A stretch of 64,000 nt of DNA, from the NCBI GenBank assembly GCA_934153675.1, contig CAKPFG010000002.1, forward strand, positions 107,748 through 171,747, given 5' to 3'. A model generated the notes under the pieces. That model saw only the letters and a list, made by a program, of their open reading frames with translations. It had not been told where the DNA came from and did no database searches. This DNA comes from an uncultured Bacilli bacterium (lineage in GTDB: Bacteria; Bacillota_I; Bacilli_A; RF39; UBA660). Made by a program: the position numbers and the translations under genes. How positions within the stretch are numbered: position 1 is the stretch's first letter; every line of letters begins with the position of its first letter. Shown piece by piece: positions 1-64,000 of this stretch.

Positions 1-511
1 CTTTTGCATCTTTTAATAATTCAGATTGTTTAGCAGCCTTTTTAGTAACAGGAAGTAATATTAATCTTATTATTAACGTTGCAACTATAACTGATAATCC
101 ATAATTTTTTAATAAATTACCTAATTGAATTAAAACCCAAGCTAATGGTTTTACAAAAAGACTAGTCCACAAACCCTCATAACCACCAGATGTTATTTTA
201 AAATCATTACAGGCAACTAATTTATTTACATCTAGTAAATTATCCTTCTGTTTATTATATTCTGATTTAGAGATATCTTTATCCTTTAATTGCTTGTTTA
301 GTTTTTCAATTTTTTCATCTTTCGTTTTTTCATACAATTTTAATATATCTTTATCATTTGGTTTACACAAAATATTTGATGGTAATACTTGTCCTGTTTC
401 ATTATTTTTTACTATTTTTCCTTCACTATTTTTCAACTGCTTAGTACAACCCGTTACAATTACTACTAATAATACTAACAGTATAATTTTTATCTTTTTA
501 TGTTTTTTCAC
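1..511 (-). CDS. yidC: membrane protein insertase YidC/SpoIIIJ, N-terminal part (gene continues past window start)
   Basis: Minus-strand frame is open from 511 to the window edge. It is absent from the ORF track because it has a GTG start and no in-window stop. GGGAGGA SD lies just upstream. N-terminus VKKHKKIKIILLVLLVVIVTGC is a lipoprotein signal with lipobox. Later ...IIRLILLPVTKKAAKQSELLKDAK resembles the conserved YidC motif. Canonical position after rnpA. Confidence 0.8.
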   Translation of the reverse strand, partial: MKKHKKIKIILLVLLVVIVTGCTKQLKNSEGKIVKNNETGQVLPSNILCKPNDKDILKLYEKTKDEKIEKLNKQLKDKDISKSEYNKQKDNLLDVNKLVACNDFKITSGGYEGLWTSLFVKPLAWVLIQLGNLLKNYGLSVIVATLIIRLILLPVTKKAAKQSELLKDAK

Positions 512-848
512 TAAAATCCTCCCTTATAATACTTAATTTATTTAAAGCAAAATATAAAGCACTTTTCTTTTCTTGAAAAGTTTTTTTTAAAATTTCCTTC
601 CTTAATATTATAATACAATTAAAAGAATTTTCATAGTATTTAGAATCAATTATGTCTTTTATTTGTCTTTTTAATTTATTTCGAACAACTGCGTTTCCCA
701 ATTTTTTACTAACGGATATACCAAATTTATAATTATCATTTGTATTTTTTTCCAGATAAATAATAAAATAATTAAATTTGTAAGGTTTAGAATTTTTAAT
801 AATTCTAGTATATTCTAAATTATGCTTAATTATATTCTTTTTTTTCAA
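498..848 (-). CDS. rnpA: ribonuclease P protein component
   Basis: Track ORF 498..875 contains ...KFGISVSKKLGNAVVRNKLKRQIKD..., typical of RnpA. I prefer TTG at 848 with AAGGAGG 5 nt upstream. Lies between rpmH and yidC. Confidence 0.85.
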   Translation of the reverse strand: MKKKNIIKHNLEYTRIIKNSKPYKFNYFIIYLEKNTNDNYKFGISVSKKLGNAVVRNKLKRQIKDIIDSKYYENSFNCIIILRKEILKKTFQEKKSALYFALNKLSIIREDFSEKT

Positions 849-890
849 ATTTAACCTCCTTAAAACAAAAATCACTACTTAGAGTGATTA

Positions 891-1013
891 TTAACGAGAT
901 AATACTTTACGACCTTTTTTTCTTCTTCTTGTAATTATATTAGTTTTAATACGTGCCATAAAACCCATTTTCTTACTTTTTCTATGATTGTTAGGTTGAT
1001 ATGTTCTTTTCAT
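891..1013 (-). CDS. rpmH: 50S ribosomal protein L34
   Basis: Hand translation of minus strand gives [40 protein letters not shown] (40 aa), a classic L34. It is too short for the ORF track. Confidence 0.95.
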
Positions 1014-1109
1014 CGTACACCTCCATTATCTATAATATCTGCTTGCTTTATCAATTATATATATTTTTTTCAATTTTGTCAATTTCTTTTTTTAGATTAA
1101 TAAAAAAAG

Positions 1110-1252
1110 TTATGCACAATGATTTAAATGAAATATTCATTGAATTTAAATATTAAAATATAATTTTCAACATAATTTTAACTTATCCACATTTTAAACA
1201 AATGTTTACAAAAAATGATGTTTAAAACTTATGCACATTTTTTGTGTATAAG
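1110..1252. promoter_or_regulatory. oriC part 1: DnaA-box cluster upstream of dnaA
   Basis: Perfect TTATCCACA at 1183..1191. TTATGCACA at 1110..1118 and 1229..1237. Inverted TGTGTATAA (=TTATACACA) at 1244..1252. All lie in the rpmH-dnaA intergenic region. Confidence 0.85.
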
Positions 1253-1342
1253 TTTATTTTTTTTATTTTTTAAGGTTTTTTTCTTTCTTTTTTACACATT
1301 TTATTGTAAAATATTGATGTTGATTACGAAGAAGGTGAATTT

Positions 1343-2701
1343 ATGAACTTAAATAATATGTGGATAAATTTTTTAGAGAAAATTAAACAAAAAATTAGTA
1401 ATATATCATATGAAACATGGTTTAGTGAAACCAAGTTAATAAATATTAATGATGGTATTGCAAAAGTTCAAGTTCCATATCACATTCATAAAAAAAACCT
1501 TTCAGAAAATTATATTGATATTATAGAAGAAACATTTTTAGAAGTAACTGGTACAAATTTTAAATTTGAATTTTATTTAGAAGAAGAATTAGAAAAAAAT
1601 ATTAAATTAGATATAGAATCTATAGGTATACCAAATAATGACAATTTTGAAACAAATCTTGACACTAGATATTCATTTAATAATTATATAATAGGAAAAA
1701 GTAATAAATTTGCTGCTACTAGTGCTCTTGCTGTTGCTGAACATCCAGGTAAAATGTATAATCCTTTATTCATATATGGACCAAGTGGATTAGGAAAAAC
1801 ACATTTAATGCAAGCTATAGGTAATTTTATCGTAAAAAACAGTGCAAAAAGAGTTCTTTACATTACTTGTGATAATTTTGTGTCAGATTTTGTTGATATA
1901 TGTAGAAAAAATAATAATTCTAATAATTTAGAAGCAACAAAACAATTTAAAAATAAATACAGAGACGTGGACGTTTTGATTATAGATGATATTCACAATT
2001 TAGTAGGGGCCATTTCAGCCCAACAAGAATTTTTCAATACATTTAATGAATTATATAATAATGAAAAACAAATTATAATATCTTCAGATAGATCTCCTGA
2101 TGATATAAAAAGATTGGAAGAAAGATTAAAAACAAGATTCAATTGGGGATTAACAGTGAGTATAGAACCACCAGATTTTGAACTTAGAATGAATATAATT
2201 AACAAAAAAATTGAAAATCATGAGCTTAATAATAATTTTCCTGAAGATGTTAAAGAATATATTGCTAGTAATTGTATTGGAGATATTAGAAAACTAGAAG
2301 GAGCCTTAACAAGAGTGTTTGCTTATGCTACAATAATGAATGGTTCTGACATAAATATTAACTTAGCTGCTGAGGCTTTAAAAGATTATTTTGTAAAAAC
2401 AATAATTGCTAAAAATAATATAGAACAAGTAATGCATATTGTTAGTAGCAATTATAATGTCAGTGTAGATGATTTAAAATCAAAAAGAAGAATTAGTAAA
2501 ATAACTTTGCCTAGACAAATAGCTATGTATATATGTAGAATTTACTTAAATGAAAATTTGGTAAAAATTGGAAATGAATTTGGTGGAAGAAATCACACCA
2601 CTGTTATGCACGGAGTTGACAAAATAAAAAAAGAAGTAGACAAAAGTGCTGATTTAAACAATGAAATTCAAAAAATGGTAAATCAAATAAAAATGTGTTA
2701 A
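1343..2701 (+). CDS. dnaA: chromosomal replication initiator protein DnaA
   Basis: 452-aa ORF with AAA+ Walker A GPSGLGKTHL, box VII region, and C-terminal DNA-binding signature ...FGGRNHTTVMHGVDKI... Confidence 0.97.
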   Translation: MNLNNMWINFLEKIKQKISNISYETWFSETKLININDGIAKVQVPYHIHKKNLSENYIDIIEETFLEVTGTNFKFEFYLEEELEKNIKLDIESIGIPNNDNFETNLDTRYSFNNYIIGKSNKFAATSALAVAEHPGKMYNPLFIYGPSGLGKTHLMQAIGNFIVKNSAKRVLYITCDNFVSDFVDICRKNNNSNNLEATKQFKNKYRDVDVLIIDDIHNLVGAISAQQEFFNTFNELYNNEKQIIISSDRSPDDIKRLEERLKTRFNWGLTVSIEPPDFELRMNIINKKIENHELNNNFPEDVKEYIASNCIGDIRKLEGALTRVFAYATIMNGSDININLAAEALKDYFVKTIIAKNNIEQVMHIVSSNYNVSVDDLKSKRRISKITLPRQIAMYICRIYLNENLVKIGNEFGGRNHTTVMHGVDKIKKEVDKSADLNNEIQKMVNQIKMC

Positions 2702-4061: not shown

Positions 4062-4514
4062 ATGAAAAATTATGAAATAAATGAATCTACACAATTTATT
4101 AAACCTATTGATACAAAATGTTGTTTAATTTATGAGGAAGAAGAAAAATATGAAATTAGTAATTCTAGTAATAATATTATTAAATATAATTGTTCTTTTT
4201 ATGGAAGTTCATATATAGGTCGATGCGAAGGAACTAAATGTTTAACTGGAATAAAATCTAAATTTCCAATTATAATTGAGGAATCAAGAAAAATAATATT
4301 TTTTCCAACATCTTCAATTAGAACTAAGGATGCCATTTGGATATCTTTAAATCAAATTAAAGATATCAAAAAAGATAATAATAAAAGTATAATAATATTT
4401 AAAAATGGTGTTAATATAAAACTGCCAATATCATATTATTCTTTAAAAAATCAATATTGCAGAGCCATAATGTTAAAAGCTAAATTGTATGAAAGAATTG
4501 GAAAAGAAATGTAA
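4062..4514 (+). CDS. ComK-family transcription factor
   Basis: NCSFYGSSYIGRCEGTKCLTGIKSKFPIIIEESRKIIFFPTSSIRTKDAIWISL...NGVNIKLPISYYSLKNQYCRAIMLKAKLYERI aligns by eye with B. subtilis ComK (SCRFFGSSYAGRKAGT...KPPIMVDPSNQIFLFPTLS...WIS...NGKTMELPISYNSFENQVYRTAWLRTKFQDRI). GGGGGA SD. Confidence 0.8.
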   Translation: MKNYEINESTQFIKPIDTKCCLIYEEEEKYEISNSSNNIIKYNCSFYGSSYIGRCEGTKCLTGIKSKFPIIIEESRKIIFFPTSSIRTKDAIWISLNQIKDIKKDNNKSIIIFKNGVNIKLPISYYSLKNQYCRAIMLKAKLYERIGKEM

Positions 4515-4625: not shown

Positions 4626-5735
4626 ATGTATTTAAAACGTGTTCAAATTCAAAATTATCGGAATTATTCTAATTTAAAAGTTTCTTTTAATAAAGGTATA
4701 AATATTATCTATGGTAACAATGCACAAGGAAAGACAAATTTATTAGAAGCAATATATGTATTAGCTTTAACTAATACATTTAAAAGTACTATGGAAAGTG
4801 ATCTTGTTAAATATAATAAAAATTATTTTAAATTATCTGGTGTTATAAAAAAAGAAAAATTAGATACATTATTAGAAGTTATGTATTGTAATAATAGAAA
4901 AATTTTATCAATAGATAAAACGGTAATGAATAAAGTGAGTGAGTATATTTCTGCTTTAAATGTAATTTTATTTACCCCTGATGATTTGGATATAATAAAA
5001 GGTCCTCCTTTAAATAGGCGAAATTTTTTAAACATTGAATTATCTCAATTATATAGAAATTACTATATATTATTAAATGAATATAATAAGGTTTTAAAAA
5101 CTAGAAATGAATTTTTAAAATTACAAAAGCCCAATAAAAAGTATTTAGATATATTAACTGAATTTTTGATTGAAAAAAATATAGCTATTTATAAAATTAG
5201 AAAAAAATTCATTAATAAAATTAATTTATATTGTGAGAAAATATTTTATGATATTTCTGGATTAAAGCATTTTAAAATATTATATAAACCCAATTTTGAT
5301 TATTTTCTTTATGAATATAATAAAAATAAATGTCTTGAAATATTTAGTCATAAATATAAAACAGAATATAAATCTTTGACAACTTTTTATGGTGTACATA
5401 AAGATGATTTTGAATTTTATTTAGGGGATATTAATTTAAAAAATTTCGGTTCGCAAGGCCAACAAAGATTAGCCATTTTAGCTCTTAAACTTTCTGAAAT
5501 AGAGATTTTTAAAAATTGGCAAAATACCTTTCCAATTTTATTACTTGATGATGTCTTTAGTGAAATAGATAAAGATAAAAGCAACAAACTTATGAATTAT
5601 TTAAACAGTAAATTACAAGTTATTATAACAACGGTTTCTCTTGAAAATGTTGATAATAAAATTTTATCTTGTGCTAAGATATTCAATATAGAAAATGGAA
5701 AATTAAAAATACAGAGAGGTGATTTTAATGAATGA
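4626..5735 (+). CDS. recF: DNA replication and repair protein RecF
   Basis: N-terminal Walker [19 protein letters not shown]-like signature [16 protein letters not shown]. Walker [13 protein letters not shown]. Confidence 0.95.
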
Positions 5736-10204: not shown

Positions 10205-10234
10205 TTGACATCATCCTTTAAAATGATGTATATT
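10205..10234 (+). promoter_or_regulatory. sigma-A type promoter of the SRP RNA
   Basis: TTGACA (10205..10210), 18 nt spacer, TATATT (10229..10234). Confidence 0.6.
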
Positions 10235-10237
10235 GTA

Positions 10238-10312
10238 TGTGCACAACATTTATATTTGAATCAGGTCAGAGAAGGAATTCAGCAGCCTTAAGAATCTCTA
10301 AATGTGTGTGCT
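10238..10312 (+). ncRNA. ffs: signal recognition particle RNA, short 4.5S-like form
   Basis: Core CAGGTCAGAGAAGGAATTCAGCAGCC resembles the conserved SRP domain IV motif (E. coli GGUCAGGUCCGGAAGGAAGCAGCC). The flanks GCACAACATTTA / TAAATGTGTGTGC pair as a closing helix. A T8 run follows. It has its own promoter and no ORF. The neighbourhood (tadA/dnaX) matches B. subtilis scr. Ends are approximate. Confidence 0.7.
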
Positions 10313-10327
10313 TTTTTTTGTAATAAA

Positions 10328-31125: not shown

Positions 31126-31211
31126 TGTTGCATTAATCTTTTTTTTTTGATAAAATATGTAGGAACTTAAATTTCTATGGCAATTATTGTCATGGCGGAA
31201 GGAGAGAAAAA

Positions 31212-38743: not shown

Positions 38744-38782
38744 AAGAGTATTGATACATTTCAATACTCTTTTCTTTTTTTA
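38744..38782 (+). terminator. intrinsic terminator after abgT-like gene
   Basis: AAGAGTATTGA (38744..38754) pairs with TCAATACTCTT (38761..38771), 6-nt loop, then TTCTTTTTTT. Confidence 0.8.
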
Positions 38783-38818
38783 TAGATTGTGATATTATGA
38801 ATATGAAAGGTAGAATAT

Positions 38819-40084
38819 ATGAAAAATAAAAAAGCATTTACATTAATAGAATTAATAGCCGTATTAGTAATACTAGCTATATTAGCACTAATAGTAACCC
38901 CAATTGTATTAAATATCGTAAAACACTCTAAGGAATCAGCTAATAAAAGAAGTGTTGATGCATACGGAAAAAGTATAGAACTTGCCGTAGCTAATTATTT
39001 ACTAGATAAAGGAGAATTTCCAACAAACATAAGTGATTTAAAAATTGAATACTCAGGGGAAGAGGTTATATGTAATATTTCTCTATTAAATGAAGATTCA
39101 AGTGTATACTTATCAGAATGCAAAGTAGGAAGTAGTGATGTAAAGGATAAAAATACTAGCGATGGATGGTATCACTATGGTAAAAAAAGTTTAACTAATG
39201 AAGAATATGTTGATATGTATGGAAAATCATTAGAAAAAGCTATCAGTGAATATAAAGCAAGTAATAATAAATTACCAGAAGATTATCAAACTTTAAAGTT
39301 AGATTATAATTTAAAAAGTATCAAATGTAATGTTACCATTAATTATGATGGTACGGTATATTTAACAGAATGTATTCTTGATAAAAAAGAAGTAAAAGAT
39401 TCAAATAATGAAGATGGATATTATCACTATGGAAAAATAAAGTATAAAGCCTATAAAATAGGCGATGAAATAACATATAATGGTATTAATTTTTATGTTA
39501 TAGAAAATAGTGATGAGAATAGTGATTCTGTAACACTACTAAAAAGAGAACCATTAACAGTAGCTGAAGTAAATAAATATGGTGTAGGACATGTTAATGT
39601 CAATGTCTATTCGGATTATAAAGGGACAGCCTATGATGATAATGGATACGGAGGAATGGCATACTATTCAAGTTCAACATGTGGATATAATGGTTCTAAA
39701 TGGATAGGTACAGGATGTACGACAGATTATGCAAAAAGCGAAGTAAAATATGTAGTTGATGCATGGGTATTAGATAAACTAAAGGCAAGTGACCTAAAAG
39801 AGGATAAAACCGGCTATAGTGCAAGATTAATAACATATAATGAATTGACAAGCAACTTAGGATATCAAAAGACAAATGATTCACCGCTTCCACCATCAAG
39901 CAATGGAGAAACCCCAAGTTGGGTATATAATAGTAGCCATAGGTATTGGACGATGAGTCAATGGGGAGATTTCCCTCCTAACGTGTGGACTGTGGGCGGC
40001 AATGGCAACCTGTATAGCTCCTATGAGAGTAACTACGACGGTTCCGTGCGCCCCGTTATAACCCTCTTAAAATCTGCTATCTAA
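38819..40084 (+). CDS. prepilin-type N-terminal cleavage/methylation domain protein with two tandem pilin-like repeats and a lectin-like (DUF1566-like) C-terminal domain
   Basis: MKNKKA|FTLIELIAVLVILAILALIV is a class III (type IV pilin) signal with Glu+5. Two ~78-aa repeats follow. The C-terminus ...ARLITYNELTSNLG...YWTMS...VWTVGGNGN...VRPVI resembles the DUF1566/C-type-lectin-like pattern (wrLPt.EL...YWSst...W.v.f..G......vRcVR). Confidence 0.7.
   Translation: MKNKKAFTLIELIAVLVILAILALIVTPIVLNIVKHSKESANKRSVDAYGKSIELAVANYLLDKGEFPTNISDLKIEYSGEEVICNISLLNEDSSVYLSECKVGSSDVKDKNTSDGWYHYGKKSLTNEEYVDMYGKSLEKAISEYKASNNKLPEDYQTLKLDYNLKSIKCNVTINYDGTVYLTECILDKKEVKDSNNEDGYYHYGKIKYKAYKIGDEITYNGINFYVIENSDENSDSVTLLKREPLTVAEVNKYGVGHVNVNVYSDYKGTAYDDNGYGGMAYYSSSTCGYNGSKWIGTGCTTDYAKSEVKYVVDAWVLDKLKASDLKEDKTGYSARLITYNELTSNLGYQKTNDSPLPPSSNGETPSWVYNSSHRYWTMSQWGDFPPNVWTVGGNGNLYSSYESNYDGSVRPVITLLKSAI
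38951..39439 (+). repeat. in-frame tandem duplication (two ~78-codon units) inside the pilin-like gene
   Basis: Unit 1 is aa 45-123 (38951..39187) and unit 2 is aa 130-207 (39206..39439). Shared pattern: VDxYGKS(I/L)E.A...Y......P.....L...Y......C......D..VYL(S/T)EC......VKD.N..DG(W/Y)YHYGK. Confidence 0.8.
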
Positions 40085-40416
40085 GAAGAAGGATAACAAA
40101 AATTAAAAAAGTAGAAAAGCTAAAAATATATTGTAAATGATACTTAATAATTTATAATAATTTGTTCACAAATTATTGTGAGTATAATTTTGTCGTTGAA
40201 AGTGATTTGCTATTTATACTATAGCGGGTAATACTTGCTAATATTTAAAAATTTTCAATAATTTTATAAGTTATTTGTAAATTTGAAAAAAATTAATATT
40301 TATATTTAGTATTGAAATATACTGAATATATATTTATCATTTGTAGATTTTTTCAATTTTCTTTACATATTTTTACATAAAAGTGAATAGAAATTAAATA
40401 AATTTTTGATAATATA

Positions 40417-40451: not shown

Positions 40452-40537
40452 TAATGTCATTATAGGGGAAAAGAAAAAATGAGCAGAAACTATAAAAGAG
40501 AAATGACATTAAAAATATCGTAATGATATTTTTTTCT
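40452..40537 (+). other. short transcription unit: 10-bp stem enclosing a 14-codon mini-ORF, ending in an intrinsic terminator (candidate leader/attenuator or sRNA upstream of ychF)
   Basis: TAATGTCATT (40452..40461) pairs perfectly with AATGACATTA (40502..40511). AGGGGA SD then ATG at 40479 gives MSRNYKREMTLKIS*, stop at 40521..40523. Terminator AAAATATC-GTAAT-GATATTTT plus T-run at 40512..40537, with the stop codon in its loop. Confidence 0.45.
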
Positions 40538-60819: not shown

Positions 60820-60908
60820 GCCTGAGTGGCGAAATTGGTAGACGCACAGGACTTAAAATCCTGCGGGAGTCAAATCCCGTGCCGGTTCAAGTCCGGCCTT
60901 AGGCACCA
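60820..60908 (+). tRNA. tRNA-Leu (anticodon UAA)
   Basis: Hand-folded cloverleaf: acceptor GCCTGAG/CTTAGGC, anticodon arm CAGGA-CTTAAAA-TCCTG, long variable arm, T-arm GCCGG-TTCAAGT-CCGGC, encoded CCA. Confidence 0.95.
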
Positions 60909-60912
60909 TAAT

Positions 60913-61003
60913 GGAGAAATAACCAAGTCTGGTTGAAGGTACCGGTCTTGAAAACCGGCAGGTCGGAAACGGCGCGGGGGTTCGAATCCCTCTTTCTCCG
61001 CCA
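60913..61003 (+). tRNA. tRNA-Ser (anticodon UGA)
   Basis: Acceptor GGAGAAA/TTTCTCC, anticodon arm CCGGT-CTTGAAA-ACCGG, long variable arm, TTCGAAT T-loop, CCA. Confidence 0.95.
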
Positions 61004-61021
61004 TTAAAATTTATATAATAT

Positions 61022-61098
<77 letters not shown>

Positions 61099-61101
61099 TT
61101 T

Positions 61102-61177
61102 GGTCCCGTGGTGTAGCGGTTATCACGTCTGCCTGTCACGCAGAAGATCGCGAGTTCGATTCTCGTCGGGACCGCCA
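61102..61177 (+). tRNA. tRNA-Asp (anticodon GUC)
   Basis: Acceptor GGTCCCG/CGGGACC, anticodon loop CTGTCAC, TTCGATT T-loop, CCA. Confidence 0.95.
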
Positions 61178-61185
61178 TTTTTTTT

Positions 61186-61261
61186 GGCTCTATAGCTCAG
61201 CAGGTAGAGCACAGGACTGAAAATCCTGGTGTCGGTGGTTCAACTCCACCTGGAGCCACCA
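61186..61261 (+). tRNA. tRNA-Phe (anticodon GAA)
   Basis: Acceptor GGCTCTA/TGGAGCC, anticodon arm CAGGA-CTGAAAA-TCCTG, TTCAACT T-loop, CCA. Confidence 0.95.
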
Positions 61262-61356
61262 TTTAAAATTCAAAGCTGGGGTACCGGCTTTTATTTGGAT
61301 ACTATATTGACTTATGTTAAAAAAAGTGGTAGTATTATAGGTGTCTTTGATGACTT

Positions 61357-61433
61357 GCGCTCGTAGCTCAGCTGGATAGAGTGTTTGGCTACGAACCAAA
61401 AGGTCAGGGGTTCGAATCCCTTCGAGCGCACCA
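61357..61433 (+). tRNA. tRNA-Arg (anticodon ACG)
   Basis: Acceptor GCGCTCG/CGAGCGC, anticodon arm TTTGG-CTACGAA-CCAAA, TTCGAAT T-loop, CCA. Confidence 0.95.
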
Positions 61434-61438
61434 TTTAT

Positions 61439-61515
61439 CGGGAAATGGCTCAACTTGGTAGAGCACTTGGTTTGGGACCAAGGGGTTGCAGGTTCAAATC
61501 CTGTTTTCCCGACCA
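61439..61515 (+). tRNA. tRNA-Pro (anticodon UGG)
   Basis: Acceptor CGGGAAA/TTTCCCG, anticodon arm CTTGG-TTTGGGA-CCAAG, TTCAAAT T-loop, CCA. Confidence 0.95.
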
Positions 61516-62350: not shown

Positions 62351-63028
62351 TACTTATCTCTTTTTCTACAAGTAACTTTTACTCACAATTGCATATTATC
62401 ATTCTTTAAAATTATTGTAAATATTCTTTTGTGAGGTTTAGTTACAAGAATATTGAAATTAAGTTCTATATAAGATAAAATGAATTTAGATTAAGGAGAA
62501 GAAGTCGATATGAAAAAGCAAAAGTATGAAAATTTAGCTGAAGCTATAAGTAATAGTAGAAAAAAATGGAAAAAACTGCTTTAAGTATATTATGAGTTTT
62601 AAAAGAAAAAACTACCGTATTTGCTTTTTTCCAAGCTTGAATGAATTCCTTCAATGAAGATGTTTCTAGAAGTTTATCATTCTTTACAAGATTAGATATG
62701 GATGTAATAGATAAAATGTGTAAGGAAGATATAAGAGAATCAAAAAAGATTTTAAAGATGGATTTATAATTATTTAAAAAGGTAAGAAAATATTTTTAAA
62801 AGTTGAATTAGAGGTATAATATGTATCATTTATAGAACAAATGACAAGAATAAAATTTATTACTTAATTTACAAATTGAATAAAATGTGATATATATAGT
62901 ATAGAGGTAATATTTTAAATGTTATTATATTAAATTTTTAGTAAATGAAATTTTAAAAATATTTTTGATAAAAAATAAAAAATCAAATATTGAAATTAAA
63001 TATACCTAAAATAGAAAAATGGTGATTT

Positions 63029-64000
63029 ATGAACTATATAGGATCGAAACATTCGATAGTGGATTTTTTAGAAGAATCTATTATTGATTTTATAGATGAT
63101 GATGCAAAGGTATTTTGTGATATATTTGCAGGTACAGGTGTTGTTGGTAAAAGATTTAAAAGTTTAGGTTACGATATCATTGCTAATGATAATCAGTACT
63201 ATAGTTTTGTTATAAATAAAAATATTTTAGAAAATAATACTTTTCCTATGTTTTCTAAATTGCGATTAAGAGGTATTGATGTTTTTAATTATTTAAATCA
63301 ATTAAAAAATTACAAGGGTTTTATATATAATAATTATACTTTAGAAGGTACTAAGAAAGGTCTTTATAGTAGATGTTATTTTACTGAAGAGAATGCTATA
63401 AAGATTGATTCAATGCGAAATCAAATAGAAAAATGGTATAAAAAAGAATTAATAGAAAAAAACGAGTATTATTATTTAGTTAGTTGTCTTTTGGAGTCCG
63501 CAGATAAAGTTGCCAACACAGCTTCTGTTTATGAAGCTTTTTTGAAAAAAATAAAAAAATCAGCTCAGAGAGTTATAGAGATTAAACCTTTAGATCTTAT
63601 TAATAATAAAATCAAATCAAAGGTTTATATAGAAGATGCTAATGAACTGGTAAAATGTATTAAAGGTGATATTCTTTATTTAGACCCACCATATAATACA
63701 AGAAAATACTCATCTAATTATCATATTCTTGAAACAATTGCTTATGGTGATTGTCCAATAATTAAAGGAAAAACAGGAGTTAGAACTGATCAAATATCTT
63801 CTGATTATAATAGAAAAAACAAGGTTAAAAACGCTTTGGATGATTTATTAAAAAACGCTTCTTTTAAATATATATTTTTAAGTTATAATGATGAGGGAAT
63901 TATGAGTTTAGATGAAATTGAGGAAATAATGAAAAAATATGGAATTTATAAAAGATATGAAAAAAATCATAAACGTTATAAAGCCAATAAAAATAGAGAA
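63029..64000 (+). CDS. N6-adenine DNA methyltransferase, D12/Dam-like class (3' end beyond window)
   Basis: Hand translation MNYIGSKHSIVDFLEESI...DIFAGTGVVGKRF (motif I FxGxG) ...GDILYLDPPYNTRKYSSNYH (motif IV DPPY). Frame open to the window edge. GGTGA SD. Absent from the ORF track because no stop lies in-window. Confidence 0.8.
   Translation, partial: MNYIGSKHSIVDFLEESIIDFIDDDAKVFCDIFAGTGVVGKRFKSLGYDIIANDNQYYSFVINKNILENNTFPMFSKLRLRGIDVFNYLNQLKNYKGFIYNNYTLEGTKKGLYSRCYFTEENAIKIDSMRNQIEKWYKKELIEKNEYYYLVSCLLESADKVANTASVYEAFLKKIKKSAQRVIEIKPLDLINNKIKSKVYIEDANELVKCIKGDILYLDPPYNTRKYSSNYHILETIAYGDCPIIKGKTGVRTDQISSDYNRKNKVKNALDDLLKNASFKYIFLSYNDEGIMSLDEIEEIMKKYGIYKRYEKNHKRYKANKNRE

Follow-up and report, generated by a model that had tools for sequence, protein, structure and literature searches.

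A probable retroelement-diversified variable region at the 3' end of a type IV pilin-like gene from an uncultured Bacilli bacterium

The 3' end of a gene for a type IV pilin-like protein of 421 amino acids (38819..40084, + strand) carries a GC-rich segment that is, with good probability, the variable region (VR) of a diversity-generating retroelement (DGR) target gene. Positions are those of the window, the whole 64-kb stretch of DNA that was analysed. In prokaryotes no system for the targeted hypermutation of proteins is known other than DGRs, whose density is highest in the human gut. Hypervariability among relatives, the codon positions that vary, the modelled fold of the C-terminal domain and the retroelement cassettes of related bacteria all favour one of two readings first made from the sequence alone, namely a remote or orphan DGR target fused to a pilin-like N-terminus.

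Composition and variability of the 3' end

The segment stands out in codon usage and base composition. A patch of 32 codons at 39971..40066 (FPPNVWTVGGNGNLYSSYESNYDGSVRPVITL), in frame with the ORF at 38819..40084, has a G+C content of 0.552, and 22 of its 32 codons end in G or C, as the sequence-only reading had counted. The background for such codons is 0.132 (16,567 codons in 46 long ORFs of the window), and the remainder of the pilin-like gene is at 0.147. A count of 22 or more among 32 has a binomial probability of 7e-13. No 32-codon stretch in any other ORF has more than 12 G/C-ending codons, and the patch is by this measure the most extreme coding stretch of the window. For GC content (0.255 across the window), the segment 39957..40056 reaches 0.56 and ranks second among 100-nt segments, after a tRNA cluster near 61 kb. 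Three of the codons initially described as almost unused are indeed rare in the background (CTG 0.60, CGC 0.30 and CCC 0.78 per 1000 codons), whereas GTG, at 5.4 per 1000, is uncommon and was wrongly placed among them. TAC, AAC, GAC, AGC and GGC each occur 3-6 times per 1000 background codons. The C-terminal tail encoded after the patch is LLKSAI. The 500 nt 3' of the gene are AT-rich (0.11-0.23 GC), as previously described, and contain no ORF of at least 40 amino acids, and blastn detected no second copy of the patch there or elsewhere in the window.

The patch is the core of a somewhat longer variable stretch. The VR, TATTGG...GTGCGCCCCG, covers the 112 nt of 39944..40055 (+ strand), as delimited by hypervariable columns, by DNA alignments of paralogs and alleles and by the codon and GC anomaly. 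Its layout is that of a DGR-type VR, which occupies some 100-140 nt at an ORF's 3' end and has variable positions set between invariant ones. In 53 unique relatives of the same length, 14 hypervariable columns (entropy >2.5 bits, 10-14 residues each) alternate with invariant Y, T, M, V, V, R, P, V and T. Y, S, N, D and G are frequent in the hypervariable columns; the share of K, E, Q, M and W there is 2.8%, versus 18.3% in the other columns of these proteins. Where a variable codon is of the AAC/AAT type, its third position stays C or T, stops do not arise and 15 amino acids are within reach, and the depletion of K, E, Q, M and W is the repertoire expected from such codons.

At the DNA level, four VR copies of equal length from the window species were compared. 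The 45 variable sites fall 18/19/8 on codon positions 1/2/3, so that 37 of 45 lie at positions 1-2, compared with 38 of the 67 invariant sites. Adenine is present in at least one copy at 31 of the variable sites and makes up only 16% of the invariant ones. The adenine signature among the copies of this species is not clean, in that 8 of the 45 sites are third positions and 14 lack A in every copy. Codons of the AAC/AAT type are nevertheless indicated by the amino acid depletion, the 22 of 32 G/C-ending codons and the distribution over codon positions taken together.

The VR ends at a GC-rich 3' boundary, GTGCGCCC(C/T)G at 40046..40055 (+ strand), found in all copies of the species with only its ninth base changing (C or T). 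In related cassettes (L007, L028, L115, L165 and the list of further templates) the homology between template and variable region ends at the equivalent point, and the boundary is a candidate IMH-like element. The DNA 3' of the VR contains no significant hairpin (DNA fold z = 0.59).

Two explanations that need no retroelement bear on composition. The first is amino-acid selection or chance, a binding loop of Gly, Ser, Tyr, Asn and Asp that came to be written in G/C-ending codons. The variable columns are indeed rich in these residues, but A/T-ending synonyms exist for all of them and are preferred by the genome, a neighbouring paralog uses AT-rich codons for the equivalent segment, and the codon count has the binomial probability given above; this explanation is scarcely credible. 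The second, the other of the two original readings, is that the 3' end was replaced horizontally by DNA of a GC-richer organism. It would account for the local GC jump and for nothing else. No GC-rich homolog, full-length or partial, occurs among 2038 protein hits (the close relatives among them are all from AT-rich Bacilli MAGs), and exact-match hits in GC-rich genomes proved unrelated. The patch is found again, its invariant bases unchanged, in all diversified paralogs, in many AT-rich MAGs and in many species. In one sample, a 'plain' paralog with an AT-rich framework (...YLTMS...IRPVVTLSK, 0.29 GC) directly adjoins a VR copy at 0.44 GC, and MAG CAMKGA01 likewise has AT-rich plain and diversified copies; its diversified copies of the window type number five, and it also holds two cassettes with the other type of template. 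Transfer from a GC-rich donor is effectively refuted by this recurrence and by the AT-rich neighbour, and is very improbable.

Pilin-like stalk and modelled C-terminal domain

At its N-terminus the protein matches PF07963 (N_methyl, E=1e-7), TIGR02532 (E = 1.4e-6), GspG and ComGC, and by motif scan its gene is the sole prepilin-type ORF in the 64-kb window. The prepilin leader and hydrophobic N-terminal helix (MKNKKA followed by FTLIELIAVLVILAILALIV; 38819..38896, + strand) were assigned from the profile matches and the translation, with the helix modelled over residues 9-64. The FTLIE motif, Glu at +5 and the predicted helix are those of a class III signal. The residue at -1, between KK and FTLIE, is Ala rather than the usual Gly, which does occur there in some relatives (e.g., P0037 and P0062). 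Ala is, to our knowledge, the single replacement of that Gly that prepilin peptidases are reported to accept. Genes for a prepilin peptidase, an assembly ATPase and a platform protein were not found in the window. The sole pointers to such machinery are a ComK homolog at 4062..4514 and, in another lineage, the five-pilin operon described next.

Next come two pilin-like alpha/beta modules in tandem, each of about 85 residues (residues ~41-122 and 127-207; 38939..39439, + strand). They were recognised from an internal tblastn repeat of 34-41% identity, from the gap pattern of the alignment and from the modelled secondary structure. Paralogs have one, two or three such modules. The three-module form is P0044, which in another lineage belongs to a five-pilin operon without an RT.

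The VR lies in the C-terminal domain (residues 206-421; 39434..40081, + strand), which AlphaFold models with high confidence scores (pLDDT 92.3, pTM 0.90) and which is predicted to have a DUF6273/C-type-lectin-like fold. When Foldseek was run with this domain alone, DUF6273 phage proteins matched with probability 1.0 and a TM of ~0.5, and weaker matches were to FGE-like EgtB/CarF and to C-type lectins; a search with the full-length model was uninformative because that model is multi-domain. In relatives, Pfam identifies DUF6273 in 14 of 46 and Lcl_C, which we take to be the former DUF1566, in 3 of 46. The CLec/DUF1566 layout proposed earlier thus agrees with the modelled fold and with the relatives, but the window protein itself falls below the Pfam thresholds for both DUF6273 and DUF1566. 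The protein most probably presents a diversified head for ligand binding on a pilus or pseudopilus, into which the pilin-like part would be assembled.

The canonical DGR variable proteins with a C-type-lectin fold are Mtd of a Bordetella phage, TvpA of Treponema and LdtA of Legionella. The window protein resembles them in a VR occupying about the last 110 nt, in the CLec/FGE-like fold (here modelled), in NNC-type codons between invariant residues, in the GC-rich 3' boundary and in a repertoire poor in K, E, Q, M and W. Unlike them, it has a type IV pilin-like N-terminus instead of belonging to a phage tail fibre or lipoprotein, and neither template nor RT was found for it in the contigs searched. 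Its domain is nearest DUF6273, and the solved structures of Mtd and TvpA were not among the Foldseek hits.

Pili have been connected with DGRs before. DGR-diversified adhesins occur on the Type V pili of Bacteroides (bioRxiv 10.1101/2024.11.15.621889), and 'GspG-type pilin' domains are briefly mentioned among rare VR-bearing proteins (PMC11661182). Going by the accessible parts of the first report, the Bacteroides system is similar in concept, with gut bacteria using a retroelement to diversify that part of a pilus-associated protein which binds the ligand. The class of pilus differs, Type V in Bacteroidota versus a type IV pilin- or pseudopilin-like class III signal in Bacillota. The dispersed, multi-copy organisation seen in the window species is not described, in the accessible parts of either source, for the Type V adhesins or in PMC11661182.

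Dispersed copies and allelic exchange

The gene is part of a duplicated unit of about 1.5 kb (38774..40275, + strand) that comprises the gene, 45 nt upstream and ~190 nt downstream. In blastn comparisons the unit is 88.8% identical over 1525 nt to a paralog that adjoins RNase Y (L026) and 81-95% identical to L027. The non-coding 3' flank (40085..40275, + strand), identified by alignment and blastn, is common to most paralogs (it is absent from P0025) and is ~92% conserved among five copies at three chromosomal sites. At least three to five of these units are scattered in the species, to which MAG HGM10828 (CAAHEC01) also belongs and which has ~800x coverage in the Hadza assembly ERZ4561940.

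The ychF locus holds a gene form of 349, 421 or 423 amino acids depending on the strain. Among 10 assemblies the locus has three alleles and one 2-nt variant. The window's allele (A) is identical in six of the 10, including two haplotypes about 1% apart. Allele groups differ in gene length and also upstream of the VR, with 31% variable columns in 39718-39940. Substitutions between haplotypes cluster in the shared 3' flank, and in eight of the 10 the assembly breaks inside the pilin-like gene. Comparison of strains, proposed earlier as a check on confined variation, thus gives a divided answer: there are three alleles in 10 assemblies, but six are identical and the differences extend beyond the VR. 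Recent activity at the window locus is unproven, because the allele is the same in six assemblies.

This organisation recalls pilE/pilS of Neisseria, with a conserved N-terminus, a variable C-terminus, several copies with common flanks and replacement of one copy by another, here at the ychF locus. It differs in that each copy appears to be a complete gene that has its own start codon. Variation might then be of the pilin cassette type only, by gene conversion or recombination among paralogs and with no retroelement involved. The conservation of both flanks of the ~1.5-kb units at unrelated sites, the three gene lengths at the ychF locus, the clustering of haplotype substitutions in the shared flank and the assembly breaks are all as such exchange would have them, and the units can replace one another by recombination. 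Recombination cannot, however, create NNC usage against a background of 13% G/C-ending codons, and it leaves unexplained the depletion of K, E, Q, M and W, the bias to codon positions 1-2 and the codon-for-codon match of the VR framework to the AAC-rich templates of relatives. It accounts for the swapping of alleles and not for the codon signature, which, unlike silent-cassette exchange in Neisseria, points to template-directed mutagenesis. As the sole source of variation it is quite unlikely.

Retroelement cassettes in relatives and the cognate template

Close relatives commonly carry DGR cassettes. In related gut Bacilli MAGs they have the canonical order target, MutS_I-like ORF, bAvd, RT and template, and RT loci in gut Bacilli or 'Tenericutes' MAGs include L007, L028, L115, L165 and ~570 more. 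Across the RT clade, 386 of 478 mismatches fall at template adenines (27 loci with template/variable pairs). At L115 (VR ...AWYVDRHGGLDYDTASNSTRRGVRPVIT) all 12 of 12 mismatches between template and VR are at adenines; the figure is 18 of 21 at L165 and again at L028, where the other three are at alignment edges. The templates are AAC-rich, lie next to RTs and match the VR framework codon for codon.

At L028 and L007 the cassette directly adjoins a prepilin-type target whose N-terminal 125 residues are 60-64% identical to the window protein and which has, like it, a prepilin helix and pilin modules. In the L115 target only the VR is alike (36% over 36 aa, E = 0.004). In gut Bacilli MAGs, 18 complete ORFs of the '...GVRPVIT' type begin with a prepilin motif. 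The window gene shares with these cassettes the framework ...W.V...G.(L/V)....V....(G/S)VRPVIT and the point where homology ends. Their targets adjoin the RT, whereas the window gene has no RT within the flanks searched, and the L007 and L028 targets are of another C-terminal subtype (WLLSP...GVRPS) with another template sequence.

If the system works as characterised DGRs do, a template repeat at another place in the genome would be transcribed, the DGR reverse transcriptase with bAvd would copy it with random misincorporation opposite adenines, and the cDNA would replace 39944..40055 as far as the GC-rich boundary GTGCGCCCCG. Copying of the template would explain the C, G and T, including third-position C, in a genome of 25% GC, and misincorporation at adenines would explain why copies differ in the first two bases of codons derived from AAC or AAT. 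The cognate template is anticipated to be about 110 nt long, to read roughly TGGACGATGAGTCAA...GTGTGGAATGTGAACAACAATGGCAACGTGAACAACAACAATGTGAATAACAACGAAGGTTCCGTGCGCCCCG and to diverge after GTGCGCCCCG.

No such template and no RT-like ORF were found in the window or in ~9 kb upstream and ~5 kb downstream, no template or RT was found around the paralogs P0002, P0013 and P0025 (loci L026, L027 and L319), and the contigs known for the species gave no RT hits. Viral, metagenome, phage and plasmid collections yielded neither a cognate template nor an RT for the species (pattern scans, with BLAST for phage and plasmid). Scans with GTGCGCCCCGTTATAACC (genome and viral contigs) and GTTCGCCCAGTTATAAC (genome contigs) detect VRs and are blind to templates, because templates diverge before GTTATAAC; they uncovered a widespread VR family. 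Template-compatible degenerate patterns had no match in metagenome or viral contigs. A template-specific guess, GTGAACNACAATGGCAAC, retrieved related templates from gut metagenomes (L228, L244, L264, L274, L313 and L262), none of them cognate. The templates at 80 RT loci and on four RT contigs were all of other types, and a template-like segment in MAG CAKPHO (L120) was rejected as not a clean match to any VR there. A chimeric query joining the species N-terminus to an L007-type C-terminus had no hit above 69% N-terminal identity, which means that none came from the window species. The template and adjoining RT that the sequence-only reading had named as the thing to look for are thus present, with bAvd, in relatives, and within the contigs searched were absent for the species itself.

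These results bear on whether the VR is a fossil or orphan, made by a past DGR whose retroelement has been lost or silenced and changing now only by mutation and exchange among paralogs. Such a fossil would agree with the absence of template and RT from the contigs searched, with the invariance of allele A in six assemblies and with the occurrence of AT-rich plain paralogs. Allele C, P0013 and P0025 have third-position changes from C to T or from G to A (GTA, TCT, CCT, ACA) that resemble AT-biased decay. The search, however, reached a minority of the genome, and DGR cassettes abound in close relatives. The patch is still 55% GC with its NNC codons intact in a genome of 25% GC, and the invariant positions are identical across copies, which suggests that a template has reset the copies recently or repeatedly. 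Overall, a fossil VR is unlikely, if the most serious competitor here named. With a DGR origin granted, and in rough terms only, a live remote target is slightly favoured and a fossil rather doubtful. We infer that a cognate template and RT are present in the window genome and may still be active.

It is possible, and for now speculative, that in these small-genome gut Bacilli a single remote retroelement serves a dispersed family of full-length genes for type IV pilin-like proteins, at 3-10 genes per genome. Diversity would then arise in two tiers, adenine mutagenesis of the lectin-like pilus head and recombinational swapping of the ~1.5-kb units, and action in trans would give a surface repertoire like that of antigenic variation.

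The findings suggest that a common uncultured lineage of gut Bacilli uses type IV pilin-like stalks to carry variable lectin-like heads of the DGR type, with several such copies per genome dispersed among housekeeping genes. The mechanism would be a known one, on a pilin scaffold that has been little described. A sharp island of GC and NNC codons at the 3' end of a gene in an AT-rich genome is a usable flag for such targets that needs no template. Should the copies be live remote targets, the display scaffolds of DGRs would extend beyond phage tail fibres, lipoproteins and the Type V pili of Bacteroides, surveys restricted to the neighbourhood of the RT would miss most targets, and the family would offer a testable case of one template serving many distant loci.

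The patch and the gene that carries it

The GC-rich, NNC-codon patch at 39971..40066 (FPPNVWTVGGNGNLYSSYESNYDGSVRPVITL) is in frame with the open reading frame 38819..40084 (+), which encodes a pilin-like protein of 421 aa. The sequence-only reading had put it at about half G+C, with 22 of 32 codons ending in G or C. The count is borne out, and the measured G+C fraction is 0.552 in a window of 25.5% GC. G/C-ending codons make up 0.132 of the background (46 long ORFs, 16,567 codons) and 0.147 of the rest of the pilin gene; the chance of 22 or more in 32 is 7e-13, and the best 32-codon window in any other ORF has at most 12. The sole window region more GC-rich is the cluster of seven tRNA genes near 61 kb (60820..61512). 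A small SRP RNA (10230..10327) and an L31 ribosomal-protein leader (31175..31204) were also annotated. Of four codons described as almost unused here, CTG, CGC and CCC do occur at only 0.3-0.8 per 1000, but GTG is found at 5.4 per 1000. As had also been noted, the 500 nt 3' of the gene are AT-rich, with neither an ORF nor a copy of the patch, and no second copy was found elsewhere in the 64-kb window. The composition and NNC-codon bias of the patch are thus confirmed. A mini-ORF of 14 codons (MSRNYKREMTLKIS) at 40481..40525, with a purine-rich stretch upstream, lies about 60 nt before ychF.

A prepilin-type signal opens the protein: it matches PF07963 (E = 1e-7), and TIGR02532 and GspG/ComGC match at the N-terminus as well. 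Position -1 is occupied by Ala, not Gly. Next come two pilin-like modules, each about 85 aa long; among paralogs the number of modules is one, two or three. For residues 206-421 the structure prediction is confident (pLDDT 92.3, pTM 0.90). The model resembles DUF6273-domain proteins of gut phages (probability 1.0, TM ~0.5) and, more weakly, FGE-like EgtB/CarF and classical C-type lectins; in the PDB the top match is 9qa6, an IgA peptidase of Thomasclavelia ramosa (probability 0.98). For the suggested DUF1566-like C-terminal domain, Pfam detects DUF6273 in 14 of 46 relatives, and in 3 of 46 it detects Lcl_C (PF07603, the former DUF1566); the window protein itself falls below threshold. Annotation of the same region in two other assemblies (L185 and L186) gave a ComK match (PF06338) for a 150-aa ORF at 4062..4514, between dnaN and recF. 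ComK is a competence transcription factor, and this ORF could bear on a Com-type pseudopilus.

Hypervariable positions and plain copies

Database searching gave 2038 relatives of the window protein. In the close ones the N-terminal part is 95-100% identical, and discrete positions of the C-terminal part are scrambled. Across 53 unique sequences of equal length, entropy exceeds 2.5 bits in 14 columns (10-14 residues each), which are interleaved with strictly invariant Y, T, M, V, V, R, P, V and T. In diversity-generating retroelements (DGRs), adenine mutagenesis of AAC/AAT codons yields a restricted residue repertoire. The hypervariable columns show the repertoire expected from this process, with K, E, Q, M and W at 2.8% versus 18.3% in the remainder of the same proteins. 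At the DNA level, every base of GGTTCCGTGCGCCC(C/T)G and most third codon positions are common to the copies of this species, which diverge at first and second positions. A template-free comparison of four equal-length copies over 112 nt gave 45 variable sites, distributed 18/19/8 over the three codon positions versus 20/18/29 for invariant sites. Adenine is still present in at least one copy at 31 of the 45, and at only 16% of invariant sites, a good but not perfect adenine signature.

Plain versions of the gene also occur. Contig L319, from the same sample as a contig (L196) 100% identical to the window and probably from the window's own strain, has tandem paralogs at 2..730 and 747..1991. 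The upstream copy is AT-rich and plain (P0099-type); directly downstream is a variable-region copy (P0025), which lacks the 190-nt 3' flank common to other paralogs. GC is 0.44 in the patch of the latter and 0.29 in the equivalent segment of the former, where the same framework (...YLTMS...IRPVVTLSK) is written in ordinary AT-rich codons. The protein therefore has no need of the patch codons, and patch composition reflects the origin of the DNA. Simple amino-acid selection is rejected on the codon statistics and this plain paralog. The earlier alternative, a 3' end recombined from a GC-richer donor, is likewise rejected on the database relatives and the plain copy. The related MAG CAMKGA01 has the same split, with five diversified copies and at least five plain ones.

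Cassettes in related bacteria

Canonical DGR cassettes are found in relatives. In L007 (CAMKGA01) and L028, the target is of prepilin type and shares 60-64% identity with the window protein over its N-terminal 125 aa. It is followed by a small ORF, bAvd (PF22296), a reverse transcriptase (RT, PF00078) and an AAC-rich template; in L028, template adenines account for 18 of 21 mismatches, and the other three are at alignment edges. This RT clade is very common in MAGs of uncultured gut Bacilli, 'Tenericutes' and 'Mycoplasma sp. CAG' (573 loci, 80 of them retrieved). Across 27 loci with a detectable template/variable pair, 386 of 478 mismatches fall at adenines. The variable region of one complete cassette, L115, encodes ...GYWT...AWYVDRHGGLDYDTASNSTRRGVRPVITVYRSNL, the window framework, with 12/12 mismatches at adenines (18/21 in L165). 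Templates of the clade can be aligned to the window patch codon by codon, as in L078 (V-N-N-N-G-N-V-N-N-N-N-V-T-N-N-N-G-V-R-P), and in all these cases template/variable identity stops just past GT(T/G)CG(C/T)CC, equivalent to 40046..40055. The majority of cassette-adjacent targets have a plain membrane anchor. Among the complete '...GVRPVIT' genes of gut Bacilli MAGs, 18 start with a prepilin motif, and the pilin scaffold is therefore widespread.

Several other loci deserve mention. The small ORF directly upstream of bAvd (L115 2862..3281, L111 4361..4771, L112 1471..1881) has a MutS domain I match (PF01624; E = 6.8e-8 in L115) and appears to serve this RT clade as an accessory gene. In another lineage, L182 515..9145 (also L183) is an operon of five consecutive N_methyl pilin-like genes, among them a DUF6273-type member and P0044, a homolog with three modules of the window protein's kind. 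MAG CAKPHO has at least eight prepilin or variable-region copies. On its contig L120 (minus strand), an AAC-rich template-like segment ending at 4717, beside a variable region at ~4227..4349, was rejected as a clean cognate of any CAKPHO copy (at least 12 non-adenine mismatches); it could be a template that has degenerated or been retired. In MAG RUG12438, a 321-aa ORF (L011 5036..5998, minus strand) close to a pilin paralog has QGSPTS...YSDD motifs and resembles a retron- or Abi-type reverse transcriptase rather than one of a DGR.

Exchange between copies and the search for a retroelement

Ten assemblies of the locus (AbgT-family ABG_transport gene, pilin gene, ychF) were retrieved via the conserved neighbour YchF; contigs break inside the pilin gene in eight. 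The variable region occurs as three alleles. Allele A (the window and five others) is identical in 6/6, across two haplotypes ~1% apart in ychF; allele B occurs in four assemblies, one differing at 39963 and 40016; allele C, in one, has 6 extra nt. The question had been raised whether variation among strains is confined to the first two positions of the NNC codons. Beyond the variable region, allele groups also differ upstream of it (31% variable columns in 39718-39940) and in gene length (349, 421 or 423 aa). Each paralog is a ~1.5 kb unit (38774..40275) with shared flanks, and whole or partial units are therefore exchanged between loci. Recombination between copies would add a second layer of variation. 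The allele-A haplotypes have ~19 differences clustered in 40137..40239 (~100 nt) versus ~1% elsewhere; this cluster falls within the 3' flank common to paralogs and looks like a gene-conversion tract. Strains also differ 3' of the tRNA cluster, just past 61.5 kb (L187 12837..20518 versus L188 13163..20378), with an integrase, HTH and Mob_Pre island in one and a D12 methyltransferase in the other. The partial ORF at 63026..64000 is apparently also a D12 methyltransferase.

A cognate template or RT was not found in the 64-kb window, in ~9 kb upstream or ~5 kb downstream of it in other assemblies, around three other paralogs of this species, or in viral, metagenome, phage or plasmid collections. 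MAG HGM10828 is of the same species (99.4% identity over 1985 nt). No fixed re-diversification was seen at the ychF locus over the divergence sampled by the ten assemblies. The variable region may be live, with the retroelement present and active in this species, or it may be a fossil. The patch is best explained as a DGR variable region, and the gene as a remote (non-adjacent) member of a multi-copy pilin-like adhesin family.

For the Type V pili of Bacteroides, diversification of pilus adhesins by DGRs has been described (bioRxiv 10.1101/2024.11.15.621889), and a survey places 'GspG-type pilin' among the rare domains of proteins bearing variable regions (PMC11661182). The text of the large survey by Roux et al. 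does not mention prepilin targets. The DGR mechanism is already known; what is under-described is the type IV pilin-like scaffold, present in many dispersed copies.
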